Shown: positions 1-12,581 of the stretch, one piece after another
How the letters are laid out: every line of letters starts with the position of its first letter
Position numbering within the stretch: position 1 is the first letter of the stretch
Source: Clostridia bacterium
GTDB lineage: Bacteria > Bacillota > Clostridia > TANB77 > RGIG9151
Assembly: GCA_016287855.1 (NCBI GenBank)
Contig: JAEEXS010000044.1
Coordinates: 1 to 12,581, forward strand
Direction of reading: 5' to 3'
DNA length: 12,581 nt
Program-made: the position numbers and the translations under genes
Notes under the pieces: model-generated
The model's database searches: none
What the model saw: the letters and a program-made list of their open reading frames with translations, nothing else
Told to the model about the DNA's origin: nothing

Positions 1-138
1 GAATCACGTATCCGTGATGTAGATATGGCAGAAGAGATGGTAAACTATACAAAGAATAGTATATTGAACCAAGCTGCTATGGCTATGTTAGCACAAGCTA
101 ACCAACAACCACAAAACATTTTGTCATTACTTCAATAA
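1..138 (+). CDS. fliC: Flagellin, C-terminal fragment (5' end lies outside the window)
   Basis: Frame 1 reads [45 protein letters not shown], then TAA at 136-138. This is the conserved flagellin C-terminal D0 helix and parallels residues 334-378 of the complete flagellin at 433-1569. It is not in the ORF track because it is truncated. Confidence 0.9.
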
Positions 139-272
139 TAAGGGATAGAGTTACCTTAATAAAAGGTTAAGGACAAAAATCTTTAATGTACATATAAATT
201 TAAGTGTATTCTTAAATTATACGGCGAAAAAATAAAGAAATAGTACAAAAGAGGTTAAGTTAATAATAAGTT

Positions 273-299
273 TAGACGATAATCTAAACAGCCGAATAA
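273..299 (+). promoter_or_regulatory. Candidate sigma-D/sigma-28-type promoter for the second flagellin gene
   Basis: TAGA (273-276), a 15-nt spacer, then CCGAATAA (292-299). This resembles the flagellar sigma consensus TAAA-N15-CCGATAT used by flagellin genes in Firmicutes. The match is imperfect in both elements. Confidence 0.35.
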
Positions 300-323
300 G
301 TCTTTGGTTTCCAAGGACTTTTT
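298..323 (+). terminator. Candidate intrinsic terminator for the upstream flagellin gene
   Basis: GTCTTTGG (300-307) pairs with CCAAGGAC (311-318), with one G-U pair and a 3-nt loop, followed by TTTTT (319-323). Its left arm abuts the candidate sigma-28 -10 element. Transcripts starting at that promoter would therefore lack the full hairpin. Confidence 0.35.
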
Positions 324-391
324 GGCGTTCTGTAAAATATTTATAGAACGCTAGAGGTTTTTTGGAGAGAAAAGTCATATCGGTCTTGGCA

Positions 392-426
392 CAAGGAAGC
401 TGTCAATACAAAGAATTCAAGGAGGA
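392..426 (+). promoter_or_regulatory. Two CsrA-binding-like AAGGA motifs in the flagellin leader, the second overlapping the Shine-Dalgarno sequence
   Basis: CAAGGAA at 392-398 and CAAGGAGGA at 418-426, with the ATG at 433. The GGA-in-A-rich-context pattern and the two-site layout (one on the SD) match the known CsrA/FliW control of flagellin translation in Bacillus. Confidence 0.4.
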
Positions 427-432
427 ATTTAT

Positions 433-1569
433 ATGAGAATCAACACTAATCTAATGGCGCTTAACGCGCAGAACAAATTGCAGGTAAATCAGTCAAACGT
501 GGAGAAATCAATTCAAAAGTTATCTTCTGGATTGAGAATAAACTCGGCTGCCGATGATGCTGCGGGATTAGCGATTAGTGAGAAAATGCGTGCGCAGATC
601 CGAGGTCTGGGACAAGCTCAGGATAATGCGCAAGACGGAATTTCTCTCCTCCAAACCGCAGAAGGCGCATTGCAGCAAACGACCGACATTTTACAAAGAA
701 TGAGGGAGCTTGTAATAAAGGCGCAAAACACAGGTGTATTGACAGACAACGATAGAACATCAATAACAAGTGAGCTTAGTACACTACGAGACGAACTAGA
801 TAGAATAGCGACTTCGACGACCTTTAACTCAAAGAAATTGTTAAATGGAGAACTTGCAGTTCAAAGAGCAGAAGATGGTGGAACTTTTTCTGCTGGGATA
901 GTGGATGTTGTAAATGCAAATGCAGGTACAACGTATACGATTACTGCTCAAGCCGGTCGACGTGCATATATTTCATACGTAGATTCAACTGGTACCACGA
1001 TAAGCTGTGTTTCAGATATTACTATGACTGGAACACTTACTGGAAAAGTAAATTTTTCAGATGCTGGAATCTCAATAAACTTTTGGACTAATAAAATTAA
1101 TCTAAATAGTTTTAATGGCACAACAATAATCACAGCAGATGAGTCGATGGGCAAAAAAGCAGATTTTAAAATCGGAGCTAATACATATACCGAAGATATA
1201 TTAGCAATAGGTATAGGGGATATGTCATCTCGTGGGTTAAATATCAAAGGTGATGGAAACAAATTCTCTATAGATATTTCTACGGCTAAGTCAGCGAATG
1301 ATGTACTAGATGCAGTCGATTTCGCAATAGATGCGGTATCTTCACAAAGAGCTACACTAGGAGCGATACAAAATCGAATGGAATATGCTATTAGCAATTT
1401 GAGTGCAACTAAAGAAAACCTAACAGCAGCAGAGTCACGTATTCGTGATGTGGACATGGCTGATCAGATGGTAAGCTATACAAAAGATAACATACTAACG
1501 CAATCTGCTATGGCGATGCTTGCTCAAGCAAATCAGTTACCTCAACAAATTTTAACTTTATTACAATAA
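433..1569 (+). CDS. fliC: Flagellin (378 aa)
   Basis: N terminus MRINTNLMALNAQNKL...LSSGLRINSAADDAAGLAISEKMRAQIRGL and C terminus LGAIQNRMEYAISNL...[11 protein letters not shown]...LAQANQLPQQILTLLQ are canonical flagellin D0/D1 segments around a variable centre. SD AAGGAGGA sits 6 nt upstream of the ATG. Confidence 0.96.
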   Translation: MRINTNLMALNAQNKLQVNQSNVEKSIQKLSSGLRINSAADDAAGLAISEKMRAQIRGLGQAQDNAQDGISLLQTAEGALQQTTDILQRMRELVIKAQNTGVLTDNDRTSITSELSTLRDELDRIATSTTFNSKKLLNGELAVQRAEDGGTFSAGIVDVVNANAGTTYTITAQAGRRAYISYVDSTGTTISCVSDITMTGTLTGKVNFSDAGISINFWTNKINLNSFNGTTIITADESMGKKADFKIGANTYTEDILAIGIGDMSSRGLNIKGDGNKFSIDISTAKSANDVLDAVDFAIDAVSSQRATLGAIQNRMEYAISNLSATKENLTAAESRIRDVDMADQMVSYTKDNILTQSAMAMLAQANQLPQQILTLLQ

Positions 1570-1576
1570 TAAAGAA

Positions 1577-1605
1577 TCCCGGGTTAAAAACCCGGGAATT
1601 TTTTT
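1577..1605. terminator. Bidirectional intrinsic terminator between convergent fliC and rpoD
   Basis: TCCCGGGTT (1577-1585) pairs with AACCCGGGA (1589-1597) around an AAA loop, followed by a run of 7 T (1599-1605). On the minus strand the same stem is followed by TTCTTTATT. The rpoD stop codon (1604-1606) lies inside the T-tract. Confidence 0.85.
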
Positions 1606-2695
1606 AATCTAAATAATCTTTTAATTTCTTACTTCTGCTAGGATGACGAAGTTTTCTAAGAGCTTTTGCTTCTATTTGACGAATTCTTTCTCTAGTAACA
1701 TTAAATACTTTTCCTACTTCTTCTAGAGTCCTAGCTCTTCCGTCGTCTAATCCAAATCTTAATTTTAATACTTTTTCTTCTCTAGGAGTTAAAGTCCCTA
1801 AAACATCAACAAGTTGCTCTTTTAAGAGAGTAAAAGCAGCAGATTCCGCAGGAGCAGGAGCGTCATCATCAGGGATAAAGTCGCCCAAATGACTATCTTC
1901 TTCTTCACCTATTGGAGTGTCTATTGAGATAGGTTCTTGAGAAATTTTTTCGATTTCTGCAATTCTTTCAACAGGCAAATCTATCTCACGAGAGATTTCT
2001 TCAGGTGTAGCTTCACGACCTAGTTGTTGAAGAAGTTGCCTCTTTACACGAATTAATTTATTAATAGTTTCAACCATATGAACAGGCACACGAATAGTTC
2101 TAGCTTGGTCTGCAATTGCACGGGTAATAGCTTGTCTTATCCACCAAGTAGCATAAGTACTAAACTTATAGCCTTTTGTATAGTCGAATTTTTCAACTGC
2201 TTTAATAAGACCCATATTACCTTCTTGAATTAAATCAAGTAGAAGCATACCACGACCAACATATTTTTTTGCAATACTAACAACAAGACGTAAGTTAGAT
2301 TCAGCTAGTCTCTTTCTAGCATATTCGTCTCCTTTAGCCATTTTTTCAGCAAGTTCTATTTCCTCTTCCATAGAAAGAAGAGGTACTTTACCAATTTCTT
2401 TTAAGTACATTCTAACAGGGTCATCTACACTAGTACCTTCTGGAAGAGTTAAGTCAATTTCTTCATCTGTTAATTCGCCGTCACTAAAATCAACATCGCC
2501 TAAATCATCATCGAAATCGTCTATTACTTCTATTCCATTTGATTCAAGAGTTTCAAATATTTTATCTATTTGCTCTGGGTCAACCATACCATCAAATTCA
2601 GCCATTATTTGGTCATAGGTAAGAGAGCCCTTGCTTTTTCCTAAATCTATTAGTTTTTGAATGCATTCTTTTTTACTAGTTTCTTTTTCTTCCAA
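1604..2695 (-). CDS. rpoD: Primary (housekeeping) RNA polymerase sigma factor, sigma-70/SigA family (363 aa)
   Basis: Region 2 ([32 protein letters not shown]), region 3, and region 4.2 ([30 protein letters not shown]) are present, with an acidic N-terminal region 1. It lies immediately downstream of dnaG, as in the conserved dnaG-rpoD operon. The start codon is TTG, with AGGAGG 8 nt upstream inside the dnaG 3' end. Confidence 0.96.
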
Positions 2696-2697
2696 AA

Positions 2698-4500
2698 TTA
2701 TTTCCTCCTCTCGGCAGAAATAGAATGTAATTTTAAAATTACATCATTCAGCCTTCTTTCCAATTCATTAGCCTTAGGTCCATTTGGATCATCTTTTAAG
2801 CTTTTTAAAATAGCAGATTTTTCTTTTTCTAAATCGAATTTTCGTAGAACATCTACTGCATCTAAAAGTGCTTTTTCATTATTATTCCCTAAATTATCTT
2901 CTTCTTGCATAATTCCGGTAATAACGTTAATATCATTCTCATCAGAGAATAAATCTATAATATTTTGTTGCTTTTCACTCTCAAAGTGCATATATAATTT
3001 TTCGGCTAAATGGCGATATAAATTAACCGTAAAATTATCATAATTCATATATTTTTTTATTGTGTTAAAAATTTTTTTGTCATTTTGACATAGTAAAAAA
3101 ATTAACAATTTCTCAGAGTCATACACATTTTTAGGAATGTCTATGATTTTTGTTGTAGCGGTTTCTAGTGAAGGAATTGGAGAACGTTTAACACTCTTCG
3201 TAGAATTTCCAAATATTTTTTTATTTATTTCAGAATAGATAGATTCTACCCCAACTCCAAGTTCTGCTGCAATTTTATTTATGTAAAAATCTCTTTCAAT
3301 TGAATTATCTAGTTTAGCAAGTATAGTTGCTGCAGAGTTTAAATACGAAATTTTACCGTCAGTAGTAGACATATCTATATTTTTCTTTAAATTAGACAAC
3401 TTAAATTCAACTAGAGTTATTGCATTATCCATCAATTTTTTCATTTTTTCAGGTCCAAATTTATTTACAAATTCATCAGGGTCTTTTGCATCAGATATTT
3501 TTAATACTTTCACGTTACACCCAAGAGATGTAAGTATATCTAGCCCACGCATTATTGCATTTTGACCAGCACCATCTGCATCGTAGCCAAGTATTATTTC
3601 AGGAGCATATTTTCTCATAAGCCGACCTTGAGTTTCGGTAAGAGCAGTACCTAAAGAGGCAATTGCATTAGGGATTCCTGCTTTATGCATAGATATTACA
3701 TCCATATAACCTTCTACCATAAGTAGTTTATTTACTTTTGCGCGCCGAGCAAAATTTAGGGCATATATATTTTTTCCTTTGTTGTATATAGGAGTTTCGG
3801 GAGAATTCATATATTTAGGTAAGGAATCATCTAAAACACGCCCACCAAAAGCAATTACTCTATCTTTTATATCAAAGATAGGGAACATAAGCCTATTTTT
3901 AAATCTATCGACAAAAGAGTTATTATTTCGAATTATTAACCCAGAATCAACCATTTCGTCAGGTGTAAAACCAAGTGAACTTAAATGATTAAAAAGATCA
4001 TTCTTAACTCCAAAAGAAAAACCAAGTCCAAATTTATTTACGGTTTCATTATCTAGATGACGTTTATTTATATACTCTTGTGCAGATTTGGCGGCAGGGG
4101 AGTATAAATTGTTCCTAAAATATTTTGCAGCTTCTAAGTTTACTTGAAATAATCGTTCTTTATGCTTTATATTAGCAAAATTTACATTCGTATTATCTTC
4201 AGGTAGAGTTATTTTGGCTCTTTCGGCAAGTTGCTCAACTGCTTCGTAAAAATCTATATTTTCTGTTTGCATTAAAAACTTTATTACATCTCCTCCAACA
4301 CCACATCCAAAACAATGAAAAATTTGCTTATCTGGAGATACGGAGAAAGATGGAGTTTTTTCTTTATGAAATGGACAAAGCCCTTTATATGAAGGACCTG
4401 CACGTTTTAGAGTAACATATTCTCCTATTATATCTACAATGTCATTTGCGGCTTTTATTTCATCTATTAAAGCCTCATCTAAGAATGCCAAAAACTTCAC
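2698..4500 (-). CDS. dnaG: DNA primase DnaG (about 597-600 aa)
   Basis: CHC2 zinc finger ([30 protein letters not shown]), RNA polymerase core, and TOPRIM motifs ([15 protein letters not shown]). The ORF-track start at 4500 is GTG and forms part of a GAGGTGA SD-like string. The TTG at 4491 has proper 5-nt spacing and may be the true start. Confidence 0.95.
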
Positions 4501-4592
4501 CTCACTTGTACCAAAAATATCCCTAGTTACATTATTATTCTACATAATGCAATAAAATCCTTTTACGTAAACATAAATATTTATTAGGCACC

Positions 4593-4621
4593 TTGAAGAA
4601 TAAGAACACATGTGATATAAT
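4593..4621 (+). promoter_or_regulatory. Sigma-A-type promoter with extended -10, driving the small ORF at 4678
   Basis: TTGAAG (4593-4598), a 17-nt spacer, and TATAAT (4616-4621) preceded by TG at 4613-4614 (TGATATAAT). This is close to the consensus vegetative promoter. Confidence 0.6.
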
Positions 4622-4677
4622 ATACAAGTAAAATTATTATGTATATTCAAATGCTATATTTATGCTGGAGGAAGAAG

Positions 4678-4911
4678 ATGGATACTGTAATGAGTGTCGA
4701 AAAGAAAGAGAAGCAGGTCAAAGTTACGGGCTACAAGTATTGGTTGCAGCAACAGTGCTGGAAGGCCGGTGGCCACACCTATACGATGCGTTCTCACTGG
4801 GGAATTATCTGGACCGAATGTATTTGCTGTGGCGCAAGAATAGTGGATGGAAGAAAAATGGAAGAATTTGAAGATGAGTATGAGGACGAGGAAATCGAAG
4901 AAACTGAATAA
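4678..4911 (+). CDS. Hypothetical small protein, 77 aa, Cys/Trp-rich core with an acidic tail
   Basis: GGAGG (4667-4671) lies 6 nt before the ATG at 4678, which is in frame with the 4639 ORF. Product: MDTVMSVEKKEKQVKVTGYKYWLQQQCWKAGGHTYTMRSHWGIIWTECICCGARIVDGRKMEEFEDEYEDEEIEETE. It is flanked by a strong promoter and a strong terminator. I recognise no family. Confidence 0.5.
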   Translation: MDTVMSVEKKEKQVKVTGYKYWLQQQCWKAGGHTYTMRSHWGIIWTECICCGARIVDGRKMEEFEDEYEDEEIEETE

Positions 4912-4926
4912 GTAATATAACAATGC

Positions 4927-4958
4927 AAGCGTACCCTAAATGTAGGGTACGCTTTTTT
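4927..4958. terminator. Bidirectional intrinsic terminator between the small ORF (+) and spoVAE (-)
   Basis: AAGCGTACCCT (4927-4937) pairs perfectly with AGGGTACGCTT (4944-4954) around a 6-nt loop. The T-run spans 4953-4958. The spoVAE stop codon (4957-4959) overlaps the T-tract. Confidence 0.85.
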
Positions 4959-5313
4959 ATGCTTTTGCATGGGCTCTAAAAATTAGACCAACAATTAAGC
5001 TAAAAAATATAGCAGCGCCAACACCTGCAGCAGTAGCCTTTATTCCACCAGTGAATATACCCAAGAATCCATAATTGTTTATTTCTTTGATTACTCCATT
5101 TACGAGGGCATATCCAAACCCTGTAAGCGGTACAGTAGCGCCCGCACCGCCGAACTTAACTATTGGCTCATATAATCCAATAGCAGTTAAGATTACTCCA
5201 GAAACTATAAATAAAACTAATATTCTAGCAGGAGTTAGTTTTGTTTTGTCTATTAAAATTTGCCCGATTGAGCATATTATACCACCAGTTATAAAAGCAG
5301 TAAGATATGACAT
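4957..5313 (-). CDS. spoVAE: Stage V sporulation protein AE (SpoVAEb-type membrane protein, 118 aa)
   Basis: Small polytopic membrane protein with the motif GGAGATVPLTGFG, paralogous to the SpoVAC motif. It is the last gene after spoVAC-spoVAD, the typical clostridial tricistronic order. Confidence 0.88.
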   Translation of the reverse strand: MSYLTAFITGGIICSIGQILIDKTKLTPARILVLFIVSGVILTAIGLYEPIVKFGGAGATVPLTGFGYALVNGVIKEINNYGFLGIFTGGIKATAAGVGAAIFFSLIVGLIFRAHAKA

Positions 5314-5329
5314 ATTTAATCAATCCTTT

Positions 5330-6334
5330 CTAGTTTTCTATTGCAATAGCATGAGCAATACCTTCTATTGCTTCTCCTTGCTGGATAGCAGTAGGACTCA
5401 TAAGAGCTCCTGTTGCAACTAAAAGTATTTTATTTAATTCTTTTTGTTGTAATTTATTATATAAATAACCAGCAAAAACACTTCCACAACAACCACAACC
5501 ACTACCACCTGCGTGTGTATCTTGTGCTTTACTATCAAACATTAAAATTCCGCAATCATTATATCTACCTTTTATATTAATATCATTTTTAAGTAGAATA
5601 TCTTTTAATATTTCTCCGCCAATTATTCCTAAATCTCCGGTTACAATTAAGTCATAGTAGCTTGGATCACGACCTGTTTCATTAAAATGAGAATAGATTG
5701 TATCGGCTGCCGCTGGTGCCATTGCTGCGCCCATATTATTTGCATCTTTTATGCCCATATCTACAACTTGACCAATTGTTACATGAGTTATTTTAGGACC
5801 TTTTTGCTCAGTAGAAACAATAGCAGCACCAGATCCGGTAACAGTCCATTGGGCTGTTGGTGTACGTTGAGTCCCTTGTTCAAGAGGGAATCTAAATTGT
5901 CGTTCGGCAGAACAGAAGTGGCTTGAAGTCATTGCAATTATATTGTCTGCGAATCCGCCGTCAACTAACATAGAGCCTATTGCTAAAGACTCTACCATAG
6001 TTGAACAAGCACCATATAGTCCTATAAAAGGTATCTCACTTTCACGAACGGCATAAGAGGAAGAGATACATTGGTTTAGCAGATCCCCAGCTAATATATA
6101 GTTTATATCCTCTGGAGTTTTTTTGGCTTTTTGTAGAACTTTATTTAAATTTTCTTTTAAAATTTTTATTTCTGTTTTCTCGAAGCTCTTTTCTCCCCAG
6201 TATTCGTCTTCCAAAATAAAGTCAAAATATTTAGCAAGAGGTCCTTCACCTTCTTTTTTACCCACAATTGAAGAAGTTTCAATTATATGTGGCTCTGAAG
6301 TTAGAGCTACTGTCTTTTTTCCAAGTCTTTTCAT
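5330..6334 (-). CDS. spoVAD: Stage V sporulation protein AD (thiolase-fold, DPA-binding, 334 aa)
   Basis: Close colinear resemblance to Bacillus SpoVAD: AGDLLNQ, GLYGACST..ESLAIGS, TSSHFCSAERQFRFP, GSGAAIVS, MGAAMAPAAADTI, GDLG, GGSGCGC, VATGALMSPT. Confidence 0.93.
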   Translation of the reverse strand: MKRLGKKTVALTSEPHIIETSSIVGKKEGEGPLAKYFDFILEDEYWGEKSFEKTEIKILKENLNKVLQKAKKTPEDINYILAGDLLNQCISSSYAVRESEIPFIGLYGACSTMVESLAIGSMLVDGGFADNIIAMTSSHFCSAERQFRFPLEQGTQRTPTAQWTVTGSGAAIVSTEQKGPKITHVTIGQVVDMGIKDANNMGAAMAPAAADTIYSHFNETGRDPSYYDLIVTGDLGIIGGEILKDILLKNDINIKGRYNDCGILMFDSKAQDTHAGGSGCGCCGSVFAGYLYNKLQQKELNKILLVATGALMSPTAIQQGEAIEGIAHAIAIEN

Positions 6335-6345
6335 ATATAGTCTCC

Positions 6346-6792
6346 TTATAAATTAAATATAAAGTATAAAAAACCAACAATTATTGATGAGGATATGCCG
6401 TAAACAAGTACGGGCCCCGCTATAATAAACATTTTGGCTCCTAGTCCCATAACTAAGCCTTCAGTTTTAAACTCAATTGCAGGAGATGCAATAGAATTCG
6501 CAAAGCCAGTAATAGGGACAACAGTACCTGCTCCTGCACGTTTGCCTATATTATCATACCAACCGAGTGCCGTTAAAATTATTGCACCTAGAATAAGTAA
6601 TATAGAAGTTATTGAGGAAACAGTGTCGCGGGGTAAGCCTCTTGCAGTGAAGAAATTTGTTATAAATTGGCCTATTATACATATTAGACCACCGATTAAA
6701 AAAGCCCAAGCTATATCCTTAAATAATGGACTATTAGGTGACTTTTTCTCAACATACTTTGAATATTCTGGTTTTGTATACGGTTGTTTCAT
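6346..6792 (-). CDS. spoVAC: Stage V sporulation protein AC (148 aa)
   Basis: Membrane protein with an N-terminal KSP...F...F..GG.IC..GQ pattern and GAGTVVPITGFANSIASPA, characteristic of SpoVAC. It is the first gene of the spoVAC-AD-AE set. Confidence 0.92.
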   Translation of the reverse strand: MKQPYTKPEYSKYVEKKSPNSPLFKDIAWAFLIGGLICIIGQFITNFFTARGLPRDTVSSITSILLILGAIILTALGWYDNIGKRAGAGTVVPITGFANSIASPAIEFKTEGLVMGLGAKMFIIAGPVLVYGISSSIIVGFLYFIFNL

Positions 6793-6814
6793 AAAAACTC
6801 TCCTTTATAGTAGA

Positions 6815-8200
6815 TTAGATGGTTAATACCCCATTTGGTGTATTAATAATTATTAAAATATCTTCCTCTTTTCCAGTATCTGCATTTATATAAACAATAA
6901 AATCCCTATTATCTACTTCCCCTTTAAATTCATGTACCAATACCTCTTCCTTTGTTTCTGTAGGGATAATTGCAAGACCGGTATATTCTGGGTTTAAATC
7001 TTTATTTATATGCTCTAAAGCCACTTCTTTAGAGATTTTGAGCTCAGAAATATTTCTATCTACGTGAGAAAACAGGTATCCAGCGGCCTCAAAACCAGTT
7101 ATATCGCCGTTATCCATTGCAACAGAAACCTTTATTAAATCAGGGTAAATAGTTATAGACTTATCGGTATATGCAAAGTTTAAAGTGGCTATATTATTCT
7201 CATCTATATAATAAGTAGGGACCATCTTTGTAAAACCCTTTGAATTTAAAAAATCTAAGCCCCGAGATTTTGCATCATCTATTGTTAAAACCTTATTTTC
7301 TACATCTTTGTTGTATAAAAACCATATAACATGGCCTCCTTTTTTAGAGATATCTACATTTGCAGTTTCACCACTTTTTAATTTTATAGAAAGGCTAAAA
7401 CAAGGGATTTTTGAATTAAAAGATTCGACGATATTTTCTATTTCTTGTATTTTATCTTGCCCAATGAAATCAGTTGCTATTTTTTTAGCTTTTTCCTGGT
7501 CTATATCATTACCAGTTATACCTTTTGGCTCTAAGTCGACTATGTGGTCAGAAAAAGGCCCATCATATATTAAACCAGGATAATCTTGAAAGTTATCTGA
7601 CATATCTTGAAAAACACTTTTTTCATCAGAAGTTTTTTCGAGATTGGCAAAAGTTTTTGAACCTTTTTTAGTAAGCTCATTCCAAGATAGTCTTCCTTCA
7701 GCAAGTTGAGCAGATAGGTCAAAAATACTGTTTTGAAGTTTGGTTGCATAATCAGATAAAGACTTTATTTGGATTAGTTGATCAGTTGTTATAGGATTTT
7801 GATCTATTGTTTGTAGAGTTAAAGAATGAGAGAAATCACTAGTTTGAGAAAGGAACTTTGAAGTTTGAGCAATTAAATTTTGTTCAATAGGTAAATCGGA
7901 AAGGTTAGCCTTTGCAAGATTCGCTTGACGCCATATTTCACTCATTGTTTTAGCCCCATGAGTTGGGTCTTTACTAATTAAAGATTTAGCAAGCAAAGTA
8001 TCAATATTTTCAACATAGGAAGCCATCTCAAAAAAGGCTTGATTGTATCTATTTTCTAAAGCTTGTTTGTTATCATTACGTATTTTAAAAATATAGCCAA
8101 GAAGAGCTAAAATTACTAGTAAAGAAGTTATTACAATAGTAAACATATGTCTATCTCTTAAACGTTCCCTAAAATCTTTAAGTTTATCTACAAAATTCAT
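6815..8200 (-). CDS. ypeB: Spore germination protein YpeB (N-terminal anchor plus PepSY-type repeats, 461 aa)
   Basis: Colinear with Bacillus YpeB: ENRYNQAFFEMASYVENID, IWRQANLAKANLSDLP, SKFLSQTSDFS, DISKKGGHVIWFLYN. There is a single N-terminal TM segment. SD AAAGGAGG precedes the ATG. Confidence 0.88.
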   Translation of the reverse strand: MNFVDKLKDFRERLRDRHMFTIVITSLLVILALLGYIFKIRNDNKQALENRYNQAFFEMASYVENIDTLLAKSLISKDPTHGAKTMSEIWRQANLAKANLSDLPIEQNLIAQTSKFLSQTSDFSHSLTLQTIDQNPITTDQLIQIKSLSDYATKLQNSIFDLSAQLAEGRLSWNELTKKGSKTFANLEKTSDEKSVFQDMSDNFQDYPGLIYDGPFSDHIVDLEPKGITGNDIDQEKAKKIATDFIGQDKIQEIENIVESFNSKIPCFSLSIKLKSGETANVDISKKGGHVIWFLYNKDVENKVLTIDDAKSRGLDFLNSKGFTKMVPTYYIDENNIATLNFAYTDKSITIYPDLIKVSVAMDNGDITGFEAAGYLFSHVDRNISELKISKEVALEHINKDLNPEYTGLAIIPTETKEEVLVHEFKGEVDNRDFIVYINADTGKEEDILIIINTPNGVLTI

Positions 8201-8230
8201 TAGTAATTAGCCTCCTTTGTGTAATGTTAC

Positions 8231-8259
8231 TATTTTTAACAAAAACTTATAAAATATAC
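8231..8259 (-). promoter_or_regulatory. Candidate forespore (sigma-F/sigma-G-type) promoter upstream of ypeB
   Basis: The minus strand reads GTATA (8259-8255), a 17-nt spacer, then AAAAATA (8237-8231). Compare sigma-G-type GHATR-N17/18-CAHWHTA: the -35 matches and the -10 matches 6 of 7. It lies about 30 nt upstream of the ypeB ATG. This is a pattern match only. Confidence 0.3.
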
Positions 8260-8372
8260 ACTTTTTATATTGTGCTTTACTATACTTTTGTGATAGTATT
8301 CAAAGGATGGGACAAAGTAAGTAGTGATTTAAATTTTTTGTACCAAATTTATCATTAAAAGGAGAGGATTAG

Positions 8373-8999
8373 ATGGAACCAATTGTATTAACACATCCAT
8401 TGGTTAAACACAAACTTGCAATTTTAAGAGACAAGAATTCAGGAACAAAAGAATTTAGAGAAATCGCTGCAGAGCTTGCAACAATGCTTTGCTATGAAGC
8501 TACGAAAGACGCACCGTTATATGATACGGAAATAGAAACACCTATTGCCAAAATGAAAGCTCAAAAATTAGATGAAGATAATTATGCATTTTTACCAATC
8601 CTAAGAGCTGGAATGAGCATGGTTGAAGGAATACTAAATATTATACCTAACGCAAAGGTAGGGCATATCGGGTTATTTAGAAATGAGGAAACGTTAGAGC
8701 CAACTCAATATTATTTTAAGGTGCCCCACGGGATAGAAAATAGAACGGTAATCATATTAGATCCAATGATTGCAACTGGCGGAAGTGCTTGCGATGCAAT
8801 CCAGAGCTTAAAGAATATTGGAGTTAAAAAGATTAAATTTTTAGCACTTATTGCAGTCCCAGAAGGGCTAGAAAGAATACAAAAAGAACATCCGGACGTT
8901 CAAATTTATTGTACAAGTATAGATAGTCACTTAAATGAAAAAGGATATATTGTTCCTGGCTTAGGAGATGCTGGGGATAGAATATATGGAACAAAATAA
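8373..8999 (+). CDS. upp: Uracil phosphoribosyltransferase (208 aa)
   Basis: HPLVKHKL..LRDK, ILRAG, the PRPP-binding loop ILDPMIATGGS, and C-terminal YIVPGLGDAGDR are all canonical Upp motifs. SD AAGGAGAGGA lies upstream. Confidence 0.95.
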   Translation: MEPIVLTHPLVKHKLAILRDKNSGTKEFREIAAELATMLCYEATKDAPLYDTEIETPIAKMKAQKLDEDNYAFLPILRAGMSMVEGILNIIPNAKVGHIGLFRNEETLEPTQYYFKVPHGIENRTVIILDPMIATGGSACDAIQSLKNIGVKKIKFLALIAVPEGLERIQKEHPDVQIYCTSIDSHLNEKGYIVPGLGDAGDRIYGTK

Positions 9000-9022
9000 A
9001 TTTTTAGAGAGGAGTTTTTAGT

Positions 9023-9757
9023 ATGAAGTATAAAAGAGTTTTGCTTAAATTAAGTGGAGGAGCTTTATCTAAAGACGAAAGGCATGGCTATACAAAAGAA
9101 GCCTTAGACCATATTACTAACGAAATTATTACCGCTGCAAATGCTGGAGTTGAAGTAGCTATTGTAACAGGCGGTGGAAATATATTCAGAGGAAGAGTTG
9201 CAGATGATTGGAACTTTGAAAGAGCAGAAGCAGATAATATTGGAATGCTTGCAACAATAATGAATAGCTTGATGTTAAGAGGGGCATTAACTGCTAAAGG
9301 TGTAGAAAACGTAAGAGTTATGACTGCTATCCCTATGAATACAGTAGCAGAACCATATATAAGACTTAAAGCATTAAAGTATCTAGATAGAGGAAGAATA
9401 GTTATTTTTGGTGGTGGTACAGGTAACCCATTTGTTACAACAGACTATACTTCTATCCAAAAAGCGCTAGAAATTAGAGCTGACGTAGTACTTATGGCTA
9501 AACAAGGAGTTAATGGAATATATACGGCTAATCCAAAAGACGACCCTAATGCAAAAAGATATAAATCTGCTACATATGAAGAAGTTATTGCAAAAAAACT
9601 TCAAGTTGCAGACCAGTCAGCGTTTATTTTAGCTAGTGAATACAAAATGCCAATGTACGTATTTGATTTTGATGAAAAGAATTCCATAATGAGACTTTGC
9701 GAAGGTGAAAATATTGGTACATATGTTGGAGAAGATTGCCAAACAGAGATGTATTAA
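9023..9757 (+). CDS. pyrH: UMP kinase family protein (PyrH-like, divergent; 244 aa)
   Basis: Amino-acid-kinase fold motifs: YKRVLLKLSGGAL, VAIVTGGGNIFRG, ADNIGMLATIMN, GGGTGNPFVTTD, NGIYTANPKDDPNAKRY. It departs from the usual KLSGEAL and MDRATADYMGML signatures. The symbol is tentative. Confidence 0.8.
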   Translation: MKYKRVLLKLSGGALSKDERHGYTKEALDHITNEIITAANAGVEVAIVTGGGNIFRGRVADDWNFERAEADNIGMLATIMNSLMLRGALTAKGVENVRVMTAIPMNTVAEPYIRLKALKYLDRGRIVIFGGGTGNPFVTTDYTSIQKALEIRADVVLMAKQGVNGIYTANPKDDPNAKRYKSATYEEVIAKKLQVADQSAFILASEYKMPMYVFDFDEKNSIMRLCEGENIGTYVGEDCQTEMY

Positions 9758-9769
9758 GGAGGTTGAAAA

Positions 9770-10255
9770 ATGGTTAAAAAAAGAGAAAATTATTTAACAT
9801 GGGATAACTATTTTATGGCTATAGCAAAATTATCTGCTATGCGTAGTAAAGACCCTTCTACTCAAGTTGGTGCTTGCATAGTAAGCCCAGATAATAGGAT
9901 TTTATCTATGGGATATAACGGAGCCCCAAATGGTCTTAATGATGATGATTTCCCTTGGGCAAGAGAAGGCGCCCCCCTTGATACTAAGTACCTTTATGTT
10001 TGCCATGGAGAAATGAATGCAGTTATGAATTATAGAGGAAACAAAAGAGATTTAGAAGGTGCAAAAATATATGTTGATTTATTCCCTTGTAATGAGTGTG
10101 CAAAGATAATTATTCAAGCAGGAATAAAAGAAGTTATATACCTTAGTGATAAATATGCAGACAAAGATATTTTTATCGCATCCAAGAGACTTTTTGATGC
10201 TTGCGGTGTTAAGTATAGGCATTTAGAAGGCTTTGAAGAGATAAATATTAAGTAA
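9770..10255 (+). CDS. comEB: Deoxycytidylate (dCMP) deaminase, ComEB type (161 aa)
   Basis: Zinc-dependent cytidine/deoxycytidylate deaminase motifs HGEMNAV and PCNECAKII, with an N-terminal [19 protein letters not shown] typical of dCMP deaminases. Confidence 0.9.
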
Positions 10256-10261
10256 AGATAT

Positions 10262-10303
10262 TCCTCAATCATTAAAAAAAATGATGATTGAGGATATTTT
10301 TTT
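10262..10303 (+). terminator. Intrinsic terminator ending the upp-pyrH-comEB operon
   Basis: TCCTCAATCAT (10262-10272) pairs perfectly with ATGATTGAGGA (10284-10294), followed by TATTTTTTT (10295-10303). Confidence 0.85.
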
Positions 10304-10408
10304 ATTAAAATATGCAAAAACACTAAACAAAAAAGAGTATTGTGCCGATACACTGAAAGTATAAGGAGTTTAGTATAAAAATACTAAAAATTAAAGGAGG
10401 AAATTTTT

Positions 10409-10618
10409 ATGAAGAAAAACATGTTAAAAAAAGGCGGAGTAGCTGATATCGTTACTCTTATAATTATCGTAGGATTAGTTGTAGCGTTAATCATTGCAGT
10501 AGTTCTTCCTATGGTAACTAGCGTTAGAGAAAGAGAAGATACAACAGATGAAAACCTTGGAAAAGTAGATAATTATATTAGTGGCATGGCAGGCACAGAC
10601 TATTCATATTCACATTAG
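10409..10618 (+). CDS. Small pilin-like protein 1 (69 aa), K-G-G leader plus one hydrophobic helix
   Basis: MKKNMLKKGGVADIVTLIIIVGLVVALIIAVVLPM..., with SD AAAGGAGG 8 nt upstream. It has a short basic leader ending in GG, then a roughly 22-residue hydrophobic helix and a polar tail. This is the size and architecture of Flp-type or archaeal class-III-signal pilins. Confidence 0.6.
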   Translation: MKKNMLKKGGVADIVTLIIIVGLVVALIIAVVLPMVTSVREREDTTDENLGKVDNYISGMAGTDYSYSH

Positions 10619-10656
10619 TCTTTAGTGTGATTTAATTCGTATTGAGGGTGAATGAT

Positions 10657-10830
10657 ATGAAAAAATTAAAAGGTGGAATAGAGAGTATAGTTGCTGTTGT
10701 TATTTTAGTAGGCATAGTTGTTGCTCTGATTATAGCCGTAATTTTGCCTATGACTAGCAAAACACGGGAGATGGCTGATGGAGGAACAGAGAGAATGTCT
10801 GAATTAACAAAAGAGATGAAAGGCGAGTAA
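10657..10830 (+). CDS. Small pilin-like protein 2 (57 aa)
   Basis: MKKLKGGIESIVAVVILVGIVVALIIAVILPMTSKTREMADGGTERMSELTKEMKGE. I prefer the ATG at 10657 (SD GAGGGTG 6 nt upstream) to the TTG at 10642 in the track. It shares the invariant G-x-VVAL-x-IAV-xx-PM core with proteins 1 and 3. Confidence 0.62.
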   Translation: MKKLKGGIESIVAVVILVGIVVALIIAVILPMTSKTREMADGGTERMSELTKEMKGE

Positions 10831-10840
10831 GGGTGATTAT

Positions 10841-11017
10841 ATGCTAAATAAATTAAAAGGTGGCTTAGAAACCGTAATAGCCATAGTTATAGTTGCTGGT
10901 TTAGTAGTTGCACTTCTTATAGCCGTGGTTATTCCTATGTCTCAACAAGGAGATGAACTTATTGGGGCAACTACAGACAGTTTAACTCAGCAACAAACAA
11001 CTATAGGGCCACAATAA
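10841..11017 (+). CDS. Small pilin-like protein 3 (58 aa), not present in the supplied ORF track
   Basis: Hand translation: MLNKLKGGLETVIAIVIVAGLVVALLIAVVIPMSQQGDELIGATTDSLTQQQTTIGPQ, with TAA at 11015-11017. SD AAGGGTGA overlaps the stop of gene 2. A 14-nt stretch, AAATTAAAAGGTGG (10850-10863), is identical to 10663-10676 in gene 2 and encodes KLKGG. Confidence 0.6.
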   Translation: MLNKLKGGLETVIAIVIVAGLVVALLIAVVIPMSQQGDELIGATTDSLTQQQTTIGPQ

Positions 11018-11033
11018 TTAAGAAGTTGATTAG

Positions 11034-11084
11034 GTTTGAAGAATAATTGGGTATATAGCTCAATTATTTTTCAAACTGTTTTGC
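11034..11084 (+). terminator. Long hairpin (terminator or attenuator) between the small pilin genes and the larger downstream genes
   Basis: GTTTGAAGAATAATTG (11034-11049) pairs along all 16 positions (one G-U) with CAATTATTTTTCAAAC (11061-11076). It is followed by TGTTTTGCGTATTT, a T-rich but interrupted tract. Confidence 0.55.
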
Positions 11085-11110
11085 GTATTTAAGGAAGGAA
11101 TGTGATTAAA

Positions 11111-11626
11111 ATGAAGAAAGAGGCATCATTAAAGCTAAAAAAGGGCGGACTTGATACTATAGTTGCGTATATAGTTGTAATGTTACCTCTTTTTTATGTG
11201 CTTGTATATATGATTGCAACTATATATCATTTTTCTGTACAACAATATATGAATCAGGTAGTAAAAGAAGCTTGTGTCATGGCGAGTACATACGGTGCAA
11301 TAACTGAAGGACATGAAAATTATATTTATTCTAAATTAGCAAAAGCGCTAGATGATGATAAAGATGGTAAGGCAGATGTTACTATAACTTATTATAGGCG
11401 ACCATTTGATGAGTCAACGGGTGTAGTAGGAAATATTAGTGATGGAAGTTCAGCAAGACCCGGTGTAAATAAAGGCGATATAATAGGAATATATGTACAA
11501 TCGAAAAAACCGTCATTACTAGGTACAGTGGGGAATTTTAATGTTTTTATGTTTGGACGAGGAAATGATAACTTGTTAAAATATACTGCTTATAGAGAGG
11601 AGATTATTCGAAATGAACATCCATAA
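11111..11626 (+). CDS. TadE-like / minor-pilin-like protein carrying the same K-G-G leader (172 aa from the ATG at 11111)
   Basis: MKKEASLKLKKGGLDTIVAYIVVMLPLFYVLVYMIATIYHF..., followed by a soluble domain of about 120 aa. SD AAGGAAGGA (11091-11099) is better spaced for the ATG at 11111 than for the GTG at 11102 in the track. The architecture (leader, TM helix, small globular domain) resembles TadE-family pseudopilins. Confidence 0.5.
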   Translation: MKKEASLKLKKGGLDTIVAYIVVMLPLFYVLVYMIATIYHFSVQQYMNQVVKEACVMASTYGAITEGHENYIYSKLAKALDDDKDGKADVTITYYRRPFDESTGVVGNISDGSSARPGVNKGDIIGIYVQSKKPSLLGTVGNFNVFMFGRGNDNLLKYTAYREEIIRNEHP

Positions 11627-12581
11627 TAATCTCGGTAAGCATATTTCTAATAATAGTGGTAGTGGGATAGGTGTAATCTTATATGGTATGACGTTATTAC
11701 TCATACTTATTTTTACTGCTGTAAATATTGTAAATTCTAAAACAATTGAAAGTGGGTATAATTCTTTAAGAGATGCAGTCTATTCTGCTTCGACTGGTTC
11801 AGTTATCCACTTACTTACATCAAATCGTAGCACTACTAGTGCTCAAAATAGCATAATAAGTAATGCAAATTATGATGTATATCTGCAACTTGCTTTAGGG
11901 TATTTGATAAACAGAAATCCTACATCCTCAAGTAGTGATAGATATGTGCAAAATGGTGAATTAAATAATTTTATAAAATTAGATCACCAAAAAGTAGTAA
12001 ATTCTACAATGGCATTATTTGCTGATGCTGTTTTTAGAAATCGTGGTGGCAATCACTATGAAACAATAAGTGATACTAATAAATATAAAATATTGATGTT
12101 TTTTATAGAACCTTATGCTGATGCAGGTAATCAAAAATATTTTGATATAATTTGTTATAGCAATAATGGTTGGAATGGCAATGTTACTGCAGAATATGCG
12201 CGAAGTGCAGTTAAACTTGACGCTGGAAATATGAGATCTGTTTATAATGGTGTACAGGGGCAGATTAATAGTATCGTTAATGGCTTTTGCGATGATGGAA
12301 GAAGTTATAATATAAATATAAATGCGAATGGAAGCGACTTGGCAGGGAAAGTAAGAGAAATGGAAACGTATCCACATTATCTTATAGTAGTAAAAGATTT
12401 TGCCTTGCCTACGATTTTTGATGGAGTAGATACTAACGATAGAGAAAGAGCTGGAATAAGAAGTATCTTTACCTCTCTTTCAGGAGATGGAAAGCTTCAT
12501 ACACCTATGTGTGCGTTAAATACAGGTAAAGTTCAACGTCAAACAGAAGATAAAGGGTGGAAGCAAGAGAGATGGTATACT
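11613..12581 (+). CDS. TadG-like / Flp-pilus-assembly-like protein, 3' end outside the window (323 codons seen); not in the ORF track
   Basis: Open frame from the ATG at 11613 (SD AGAGAGGAG upstream) to the window end, overlapping the previous gene by 14 nt. The N terminus is MNIHNNLGKHISNNSGSGIGVILYGMTLLLILIFTAVNIVNSKTIESGYNSLRDAVYSAS. A Gly-rich stretch, a hydrophobic helix, then L..A..sA about 15 residues later echo the TadE/G-like N-terminal domain. Confidence 0.45.
   Translation, partial: MNIHNNLGKHISNNSGSGIGVILYGMTLLLILIFTAVNIVNSKTIESGYNSLRDAVYSASTGSVIHLLTSNRSTTSAQNSIISNANYDVYLQLALGYLINRNPTSSSSDRYVQNGELNNFIKLDHQKVVNSTMALFADAVFRNRGGNHYETISDTNKYKILMFFIEPYADAGNQKYFDIICYSNNGWNGNVTAEYARSAVKLDAGNMRSVYNGVQGQINSIVNGFCDDGRSYNININANGSDLAGKVREMETYPHYLIVVKDFALPTIFDGVDTNDRERAGIRSIFTSLSGDGKLHTPMCALNTGKVQRQTEDKGWKQERWYT

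Follow-up and report, generated by a model that had tools for sequence, protein, structure and literature searches.

Two overlapping open reading frames (ORFs) at the 3' end of a 12,581-nucleotide stretch of a Clostridia bacterium (GenBank assembly GCA_016287855.1, contig JAEEXS010000044.1, positions 1 to 12,581; GTDB lineage TANB77, RGIG9151), in the following termed the window, most probably encode the medium and the large pseudopilin of a highly divergent clostridial Tad-like type IV filament. They belong to a unit of six genes, i.e., three small pilin-like genes, the genes for a protein of 171 amino acids (aa) and one of 328 aa, and a gene for a short prepilin peptidase. The original prediction, made from the letters of the window alone, had read both proteins as pseudopilins; this reading is supported by the shared leader type, by the dedicated peptidase and by the location of orthologues and homologues of the pair, which occupy the TadE/TadF position of complete Tad-like operons. 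The proteins display the general features of type IV pilin-like proteins with a class III signal peptide, namely a basic leader, an invariant glycine and a long hydrophobic helix in the AlphaFold2 (AF2) models. Compared loci are labeled with L-numbers, and an arrow in leader motifs marks the predicted cleavage site.

The ORF of the 171-aa protein extends from ATG 11111 to the TAA stop at 11624-11626 and comprises 172 codons counting the stop. The coordinates of the earlier annotation are hence correct, and its length of 172 aa has to be reduced by one because the stop codon had been included. GTG 11102 represents an alternative start, but the ATG is preferred because the orthologues begin with M-x5-KLKKGG. 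The junction of this protein, KKGG↓LDTIV, shows the predicted correspondence to the hydrophobic-acidic K-G-G junctions of the three small proteins (KKGG↓VADIV, LKGG↓IESIV and LKGG↓LETVI). All 67 homologues share residues G12, G13, D15 and P26, and nearly all the C-terminal motif YREEIIRNE; the leader motifs of the block are still recognisable in the most distant homologues as [KR]G[GS]↓x[DE]T. The only hydrophobic segment is N-terminal (residues 12-43). The AF2 model has a predicted local distance difference test (pLDDT) score of 83.6 and consists of a helix of 57 residues (5-61), a short second helix and a small beta-sheet; the predicted fold is that of a pilin-like lollipop. Of 1.84 billion representative proteins, 26 matched the hidden Markov model (HMM) of the family at E <= 1e-3 in a search without word index.

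The large ORF starts with ATG 11613 behind a GAGGAG ribosome-binding site and runs for 323 codons to the end of the window. Its full length of 328 aa was read from the parent contig (L001), which adds only five residues to those within the window. Both parts of the corresponding prediction hold, since the overlap with the 171-aa gene is exactly 14 nt and the ORF exceeds the minimum of 323 aa. Every locus examined retains an overlap of 11-26 nt between these genes, which is suggestive of translational coupling. Homologues of the 328-aa protein form 78 clusters among 5.8 billion, all from metagenomes or from metagenome-assembled genomes of uncultured Clostridia and Eubacteriales, and none of the 78 has a Pfam domain or an informative name. 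G16 and G18 of the leader (KGSG↓[IL][GA]V[IV]) are invariant in these homologues, and the family shares the invariant internal motifs YLQLALGY, NNFIKLDH, FIEP and VVKDFALPT. The protein has a single, N-terminal hydrophobic segment (residues 15-45), whose helix carries no acidic residue; near the mature N-terminus it likewise lacks the acidic residue that the other four block proteins have. Its AF2 model is poor (pLDDT 59), with a helix of 44 residues (19-62) that starts right after G18. The remainder of the protein had been described as rich in Asn, Ser and Gly; the enrichment is real, but it is moderate (N 11.3%, S 8.8%, G 8.2%).

Two observations provide indirect support for the earlier idea that this remainder is a tip or adhesin module. 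In L016 (17-4134) the large pseudopilin has 667 aa and ends in Listeria-Bacteroides (Flg_new/TIGR02543) repeats, which are typical of surface proteins; the block of this locus, whose contig begins at the first pilin gene, harbors five small pilin genes instead of three. Moreover, the 328-aa gene diverges faster than its neighbors. A comparison of L011 and L012 revealed identities of 99% for the 171-aa protein, 97% for the peptidase and 87% for the large protein, which points to local hypervariability or recombination in the central region of the large pseudopilin. The fusion with surface repeats and the fast divergence fit an exposed position, and we regard the 328-aa protein as a candidate tip or initiator subunit, a location that is inferred.

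Directly 3' of the 328-aa ORF, past the end of the window, lies a gene for a 178-aa Peptidase_A24 protein, and all loci with sequence beyond the large ORF have a short gene of this family at this place. All five sequences of block peptidases that were scanned score 32-36 bits on PF01478 (cutoff 26.5), and all eight aligned block peptidases have the two aspartates D46 (DW.TG.IS) and D112 (GGGD). No relative of the block peptidase was found in the PDB. The presence of an A24 peptidase with both Asp residues agrees with the shared processing enzyme that the original prediction had implied. It also bears on the proposal that the genes are not pilin-like at all and encode small membrane peptides, or bacteriocin-like peptides with a double-glycine leader, together with two unrelated membrane-anchored proteins. 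This proposal would accommodate the GG motif before the predicted cleavage site and the lack of both pilin HMM matches and a Foldseek pilin fold. It is extremely improbable, because the leaders of 7-18 residues are basic and directly followed by a hydrophobic helix of 20-30 residues, because the adjacent peptidase belongs to A24 and is not a C39 ABC transporter, and because homologues are found in operons that also encode a T2SSE ATPase and a CpaB-like protein. The reading of the GG motif as part of a double-glycine bacteriocin leader was rejected on account of the form of the leader and the family of the neighboring peptidase.

Several observations nonetheless weigh against an assignment to a Tad-like filament. 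No Pfam or NCBIfam model for pilins, TadE, TadF, TadG or Flp matches: TadE (PF07811) gives no match at E <= 1 with the window protein or with the 67 members of its family, TadF (PF16964) reaches 0.088 in one distant relative only, and the TadE/G-like N-terminal domain, which we take to be Pfam 'Tad' (PF13400), is absent from the matches at E <= 1 of the large window protein and 26 diverse members of its family. A Foldseek comparison of both models with the PDB returned nothing at E <= 0.001 and no pilin fold, the model of the 328-aa protein being too poor for an interpretation. The acidic residue is located at +2 or +3 instead of +5, and Tyr6 is missing. A T2SSE ATPase, a T2SSF platform protein, a CpaB-like and a TadZ-like protein are all absent within about 10 kb of the block in about 12 independent motor-less loci of three subclades, and a tblastn search with the motor proteins of relatives against 259 kb (partly redundant) of these loci yielded nothing. 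Finally, cleavage, fiber formation and tip location are all inferred.

None of the five window proteins has a significant match in Pfam-A or NCBIfam; weak matches to the archaeal DUF7288/DUF7289 and to UpsC are not significant and were treated as noise. In 26 members of the large family and 67 members of the 171-aa family there is no match at E <= 1 to TadE, TadE/G-like, Flp or N_methyl models, and membership of the window proteins in the TadE or TadE/G-like families is not supported either. The small pilins do not match Pfam, including the Flp models (PF04964, Flp1_like), and lack the G↓xxxxEY motif; their own junction is KGG↓[IVLM][EAD] without Tyr6. The only related family that recurs among the matches is DUF4320 (PF14208), which matches the N-terminal helix region below the threshold in nine of the 67 members of the 171-aa family (E 0.012 to 1), the window protein not being among them; the best score was obtained for the distant relative P0154 (E 9.5e-5, 22.9 bits compared with a cutoff of 25). 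A PDB sequence search with the 171-aa family profile found nothing significant, and the sole PDB match of the 328-aa profile, the de novo designed repeat protein 8g8i (E 6.6e-10), was treated as a compositional artefact. A scan of JGI metagenomes yielded the contig of the window itself and one fragment, and nothing else. Searches of the literature on DUF4320, on YfhO in connection with pilins, and on Tad pili of monoderm conjugative elements or botulinum plasmids returned no description of this system.

The relationship to Tad-like systems becomes apparent in relatives that encode a motor next to these genes. In L022, orthologues of the 328-aa protein (46% identity, E 2e-79), the 171-aa protein (39%, E 2e-43; 193 aa there) and the peptidase (53%, E 5e-45) are located directly behind five genes for proteins of 299 (CpaB-like), 278 (TadZ-like), 501 (T2SSE ATPase), 319 and 387 aa, the last two being membrane proteins. 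These motor genes match gene for gene those of L017 and L018, which were reached via distant homologues of the 171-aa family, and those of the Clostridium botulinum plasmid pCLK, with ATPase identities of 36-37% (E ~1e-100). The ATPases of L017 and pCLK exceed the threshold of PF00437 (T2SSE) and score best on TIGR03819 (TadA family) and VirB11, in both cases below the cutoff. The CpaB-like proteins of both loci, which the 299-aa protein of L022 matches in BLASTP, score on TIGR03177 (E 1e-8 to 1e-11) below the NCBIfam cutoff, and the RcpC and SAF matches are sub-threshold as well. The correspondence extends to the pseudopilins. Alignments with hhalign connect the 171-aa family with the 180-aa protein of L017 (probability 94%, E 9e-8) and the 328-aa family with its 261-aa protein (probability 94%, E 1e-7 over 214 columns). 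On pCLK, a 155-aa protein with the leader KKGG↓LSV stands at the position of the 171-aa protein, and the 162-aa protein (NKGSG↓LSF) is similar to the 328-aa family over roughly 120-140 residues of its N-terminal part. Both pseudopilin positions of L017 and pCLK are occupied by distant homologues of the window pair, with KKGG and NKGSG leaders like those of the window block.

The block is accordingly the distal half of an ancestral operon with the order CpaB-like, TadZ-like, T2SSE ATPase, two polytopic proteins, pilins, medium pseudopilin, large pseudopilin and peptidase. The motor is still adjacent in the outgroups and in one ingroup subclade, so that its absence from the locus in the window lineage is most simply explained as a derived split or loss. 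The original prediction that the pilin genes lead the locus, rather than following tadZ/A/B/C, is valid for the window lineage, where the locus has no such gene, but it does not describe the system as a whole, as the sister subclade and the outgroups place the pilins behind the motor. The same division applies to the question of whether the block travels with a Tad-type ATPase, which is not found within about 10 kb in the window lineage and is present next to the orthologues in L022 and the homologues in L017, L018 and pCLK.

The six-gene order recurs in about 12 independent loci with differing flanks, the small genes numbering three to five, and wherever the sequence includes them, the six ORFs are intact. 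The identity of the block ranges from 34% to 88% across at least seven GTDB species and about 78 protein clusters, only seven GTDB species genomes carrying the 328-aa protein. Named sources comprise human (Hadza), water-deer rectum and goat rumen. Within a subclade the chromosomal position is stable, and three types of context occur: dCMP deaminase, block, HD-GYP and dnaX in the window type (L001, L009, L014, L023); PFOR, block, YfhO and rplM in the second (L007, L010-L012, L024); and YfhO, block and rplM in the third (L005). The ratios of nonsynonymous to synonymous substitution rates (dN/dS; Nei-Gojobori) are 0.09-0.53 for the 171-aa, 328-aa and peptidase genes, with 0.09-0.37 for the 171-aa gene, and all three are under purifying selection. 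The block might alternatively be a decaying remnant of a mobile-element-borne Tad-like operon that lost its motor by deletion and has no present function. A putative conjugative element (L017) and conjugative plasmids of C. botulinum do carry complete homologous systems, and the window lineage has no motor in its locus. Such a scenario is very unlikely in view of the intact ORFs over this range of divergence, dN/dS values well below 1, the invariance of the catalytic Asp and the leader glycines, and the stable chromosomal positions.

A further scenario assumes that, after loss of the motor, the proteins form a motor-independent and non-filamentous complex, a possibly glycosylated membrane, surface or anchor structure, or are assembled without a dedicated ATPase. 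It is compatible with the lack of a motor gene within about 10 kb in any locus of the three subclades, with the purifying selection that the genes nonetheless experience, and with the YfhO-type GT-C glycosyltransferase that adjoins the block in many loci. We consider it unlikely, since to our knowledge every characterised type IV filament requires an extension ATPase and a platform protein, since the small proteins with 50 aa in their mature form have almost nothing outside the polymerising helix, and since the sister subclade and the outgroups retain the motor beside these genes. There is, equally, little probability that the block acts without a cognate chromosomal motor, be it with the motor of a mobile element in trans, such as the Tad-like systems of the pCLK/L017 type on conjugative plasmids and ICEs, or as an ATPase-independent surface structure, YfhO-glycosylated where this enzyme is present.

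The purifying selection on the genes, together with the intact catalytic residues and the invariant leaders, speaks for a block that still functions. This in turn argues for a motor in trans, and our best guess is that this motor is encoded elsewhere in the genome. Under the Tad-like interpretation, all five block proteins would insert into the membrane via their single N-terminal hydrophobic segment, and the short A24 aspartic peptidase would cleave off the basic leaders behind the glycine of [KR]-G-G or K-G-S-G. The fiber would be built by the three Flp-sized proteins, which have about 50-59 aa in their mature form, and the 171-aa and 328-aa proteins, whose overlapping genes are probably translationally coupled, may form a priming or tip complex. 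The large protein would probably cap the fiber and bear its exposed, fast-evolving part. The hairpin between the pilin and pseudopilin genes (11033-11077) could provide for more pilin than pseudopilin transcript.

The coordinates of the block within the window are compiled in Table 1. As originally stated, it lies downstream of housekeeping pyrimidine genes, which were identified as upp, an AA_kinase gene (pyrH-like) and dCMP deaminase, and behind a terminator-like hairpin (10262-10294); two terminator-like sites were found in the region compared with 0.4 expected from shuffles. An orthologous trio of small pilin genes is present in L005, L007 and L008, with invariant GG and a P-M motif. The second hairpin has a dG of -23.9 kcal/mol (z = -4.8) and is conserved in L023, a relative with 81% identity; it is absent from L005, L007 and L008, whose spacer comprises only about 20-36 nt. 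It is probably a leaky terminator or an mRNA-stabilising element that raises the ratio of pilin to pseudopilin.

Table 1. Positions of the pilin block and its hairpins in the window.
Feature	Position	Strand	Details
Terminator-like hairpin	10262..10294	+	13 pairs, then T-run; closes pyrimidine genes, isolates pilin block
Small pilin-like gene 1, 69 aa	10409..10618	+	leader MKKNMLKKGG↓VADIV; no Pfam match
Small pilin-like gene 2, 57 aa	10657..10830	+	leader MKKLKGG↓IESIV
Small pilin-like gene 3, 58 aa	10841..11017	+	leader MLNKLKGG↓LETVI
Hairpin with 20-bp AT-rich stem	11033..11077	+	between third small pilin gene and 171-aa gene
171-aa pseudopilin (TadE-like in role)	11111..11626	+	leader MKKEASLKLKKGG↓LDTIVAYIVV
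Large pseudopilin, 328 aa in full	11613..12581	+	window holds residues 1-323; leader ...NNSGSG↓IGVILYG

The peptidase gene is followed by genes for a membrane HAMP/HD-GYP protein, dnaX, ybaB and recR. This order was read from the 22.8-kb metagenome contig JAEEGH010009422.1, which contains the window with the exact 171-aa protein and shows the large ORF at its length of 328 aa. The HAMP and HD-GYP membrane protein (motif HHERFDGKGYP) is located at L001:12493-13440, L009:3652-4719, L014:9091-10197 and L023:12093-12959, and it is kept in window-type loci as divergent as ~50-60% identity; it could be a regulator of the block linked to cyclic di-GMP. In many other loci, though not in the window's own lineage, the block adjoins a membrane glycosyltransferase of the YfhO family (GT-C type) with 830-870 aa (L005:6303-8786, L007:11558-14113, L010:2279-4825, L011:9982-12525, L012:11510-14062, L022:10208-12811, L024:11525-14065). 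Its gene stands upstream of the block in one arrangement and downstream in the others, including the motor-bearing L022, and the enzyme may glycosylate the pilins. Genes for giant proteins lie upstream of the block in L008 and of the loci in L017, L018 and pCLK, the L008 protein not being homologous to the others. It is encoded by a single ORF of 2450 aa with C-terminal SLH domains (L008:293-7645), of which the gene caller listed only a part; the gene before this ORF matches N_methyl (type IV pilin) weakly.

In L017 (12200-19944) the complete Tad-like locus is directly followed by genes for VirD4/T4SS-DNA_transf, TrbL_4, TraC-like and VirB4-like P-loop_TraG proteins, and a possible function of the system is mating contact on a monoderm conjugative element. 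The pCLK locus (L019, NC_010418.1, 213644-225056) comprises genes for a giant protein, a CpaB-like protein, the ATPase, two membrane proteins, pilins with KKGG leaders and two pseudopilins; the ATPase is annotated with a generic family name and every other gene as hypothetical. Plasmids of the pCLK type are regarded as conjugative. The pCLK ATPase is matched once more elsewhere on this plasmid, and matches among plasmids comprise 20 Clostridium records, the top-scoring ones all belonging to C. botulinum or C. sporogenes. A tblastn search of plasmids with the 328-aa protein and two peptidases found nothing. Elsewhere in the window, a 77-aa gene was called between dnaG and spoVA (4678-4911, + strand), the product of which does not match Pfam, contains the Cys cluster CICCG and ends in a tail of strongly acidic character, EEFEDEYEDEEIEETE; L023 also has a called gene at the matching position.

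Our analysis defines two protein families that lack a Pfam or NCBIfam model and an informative name among their matches. The same lineage of Tad-like systems, annotated exclusively as hypothetical, is present beside conjugation genes and on the large plasmids that carry neurotoxin genes in C. botulinum and C. sporogenes, where the system possibly serves mating contact or adhesion. The motor-less chromosomal form represents a natural test of whether modules of pilins, pseudopilins and peptidase can stay selected apart from a motor; if the block really works without a motor of its own, a set of type IV pilins would have become independent of the machine that assembles it. The invariant KGG↓x(D/E) junction provides a simple motif for finding more substrates of this class of peptidases.

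One of the closest known systems is the Tad/Flp pilus (type IVc) of Aggregatibacter and of Caulobacter (Cpa), with the Flp pilin, the pseudopilins TadE and TadF and the peptidase TadV. Its pseudopilins share leader and peptidase with the pilin, according to Tomich et al. (2006) as cited in PMC3244431. The pilins of the block are Flp-sized, its peptidase is short and TadV-like without an N-terminal PilD domain, and the gene order of the relatives, i.e., cpaB-like, tadZ-like, ATPase, two platform genes, pilins and pseudopilins, is that of a Tad locus. The block differs by the lack of Flp, TadE, TadF and TadE/G-like HMM matches, by a KGG↓x(D/E) junction with the acid at +2 or +3 and without the E5-Y6 motif of Flp, and by the location of the peptidase as its last gene. 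In addition, the motor half is missing from the locus in the window lineage, and the motor proteins of the relatives are very divergent, as exemplified by the 33 bits of the ATPase on T2SSE and the CpaB-like protein below the NCBIfam cutoff. Clostridial tad loci with motors but no recognisable prepilins have been reported by Imam et al. 2011 (PMC3244431), and they represent the situation complementary to that of the motor-less block.

The pCLK locus (CLK_RS20005 to CLK_RS19965) and its equivalents on sister neurotoxin plasmids belong to this lineage of systems as well, with a CpaB-like protein, an ATPase 37% identical to that of L022, and two membrane proteins, followed by small proteins with K[KR]GG↓LS and the 155-aa (KKGG↓LSV) and 162-aa (NKGSG↓LSF) proteins. 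Unlike the block, this locus is plasmid-borne, has a motor, has a last pseudopilin half as large and no acidic residue after the junction, and no peptidase was found in the stretch examined. The similarity to DUF4320 (PF14208) is confined to N-terminal-helix matches in nine of 67 members of the 171-aa family that never reach the gathering score; DUF4320 proteins may occur in Tad-like loci of Firmicutes. The minor-pilin tip complexes GspIJK of type II secretion and PilVWX of type IVa pili show neither sequence nor detectable fold similarity to the block proteins, and their leader (G↓FTLxE) differs. GspK, the large tip pseudopilin of type II secretion, does not have the conserved acidic residue of the N-terminal helix; by analogy, the co-encoded pseudopilins of the block, the largest of which has no acidic residue in its N-terminal helix, may correspond to such a complex. 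The kind of system, a Tad-like type IV filament, is already known. New are the two unrecognised pseudopilin families, the KGG↓x(D/E) junction without E5/Y6, a lineage missed by current HMMs and unannotated on botulinum neurotoxin plasmids, and its motor-less chromosomal form in gut and rumen Clostridia.

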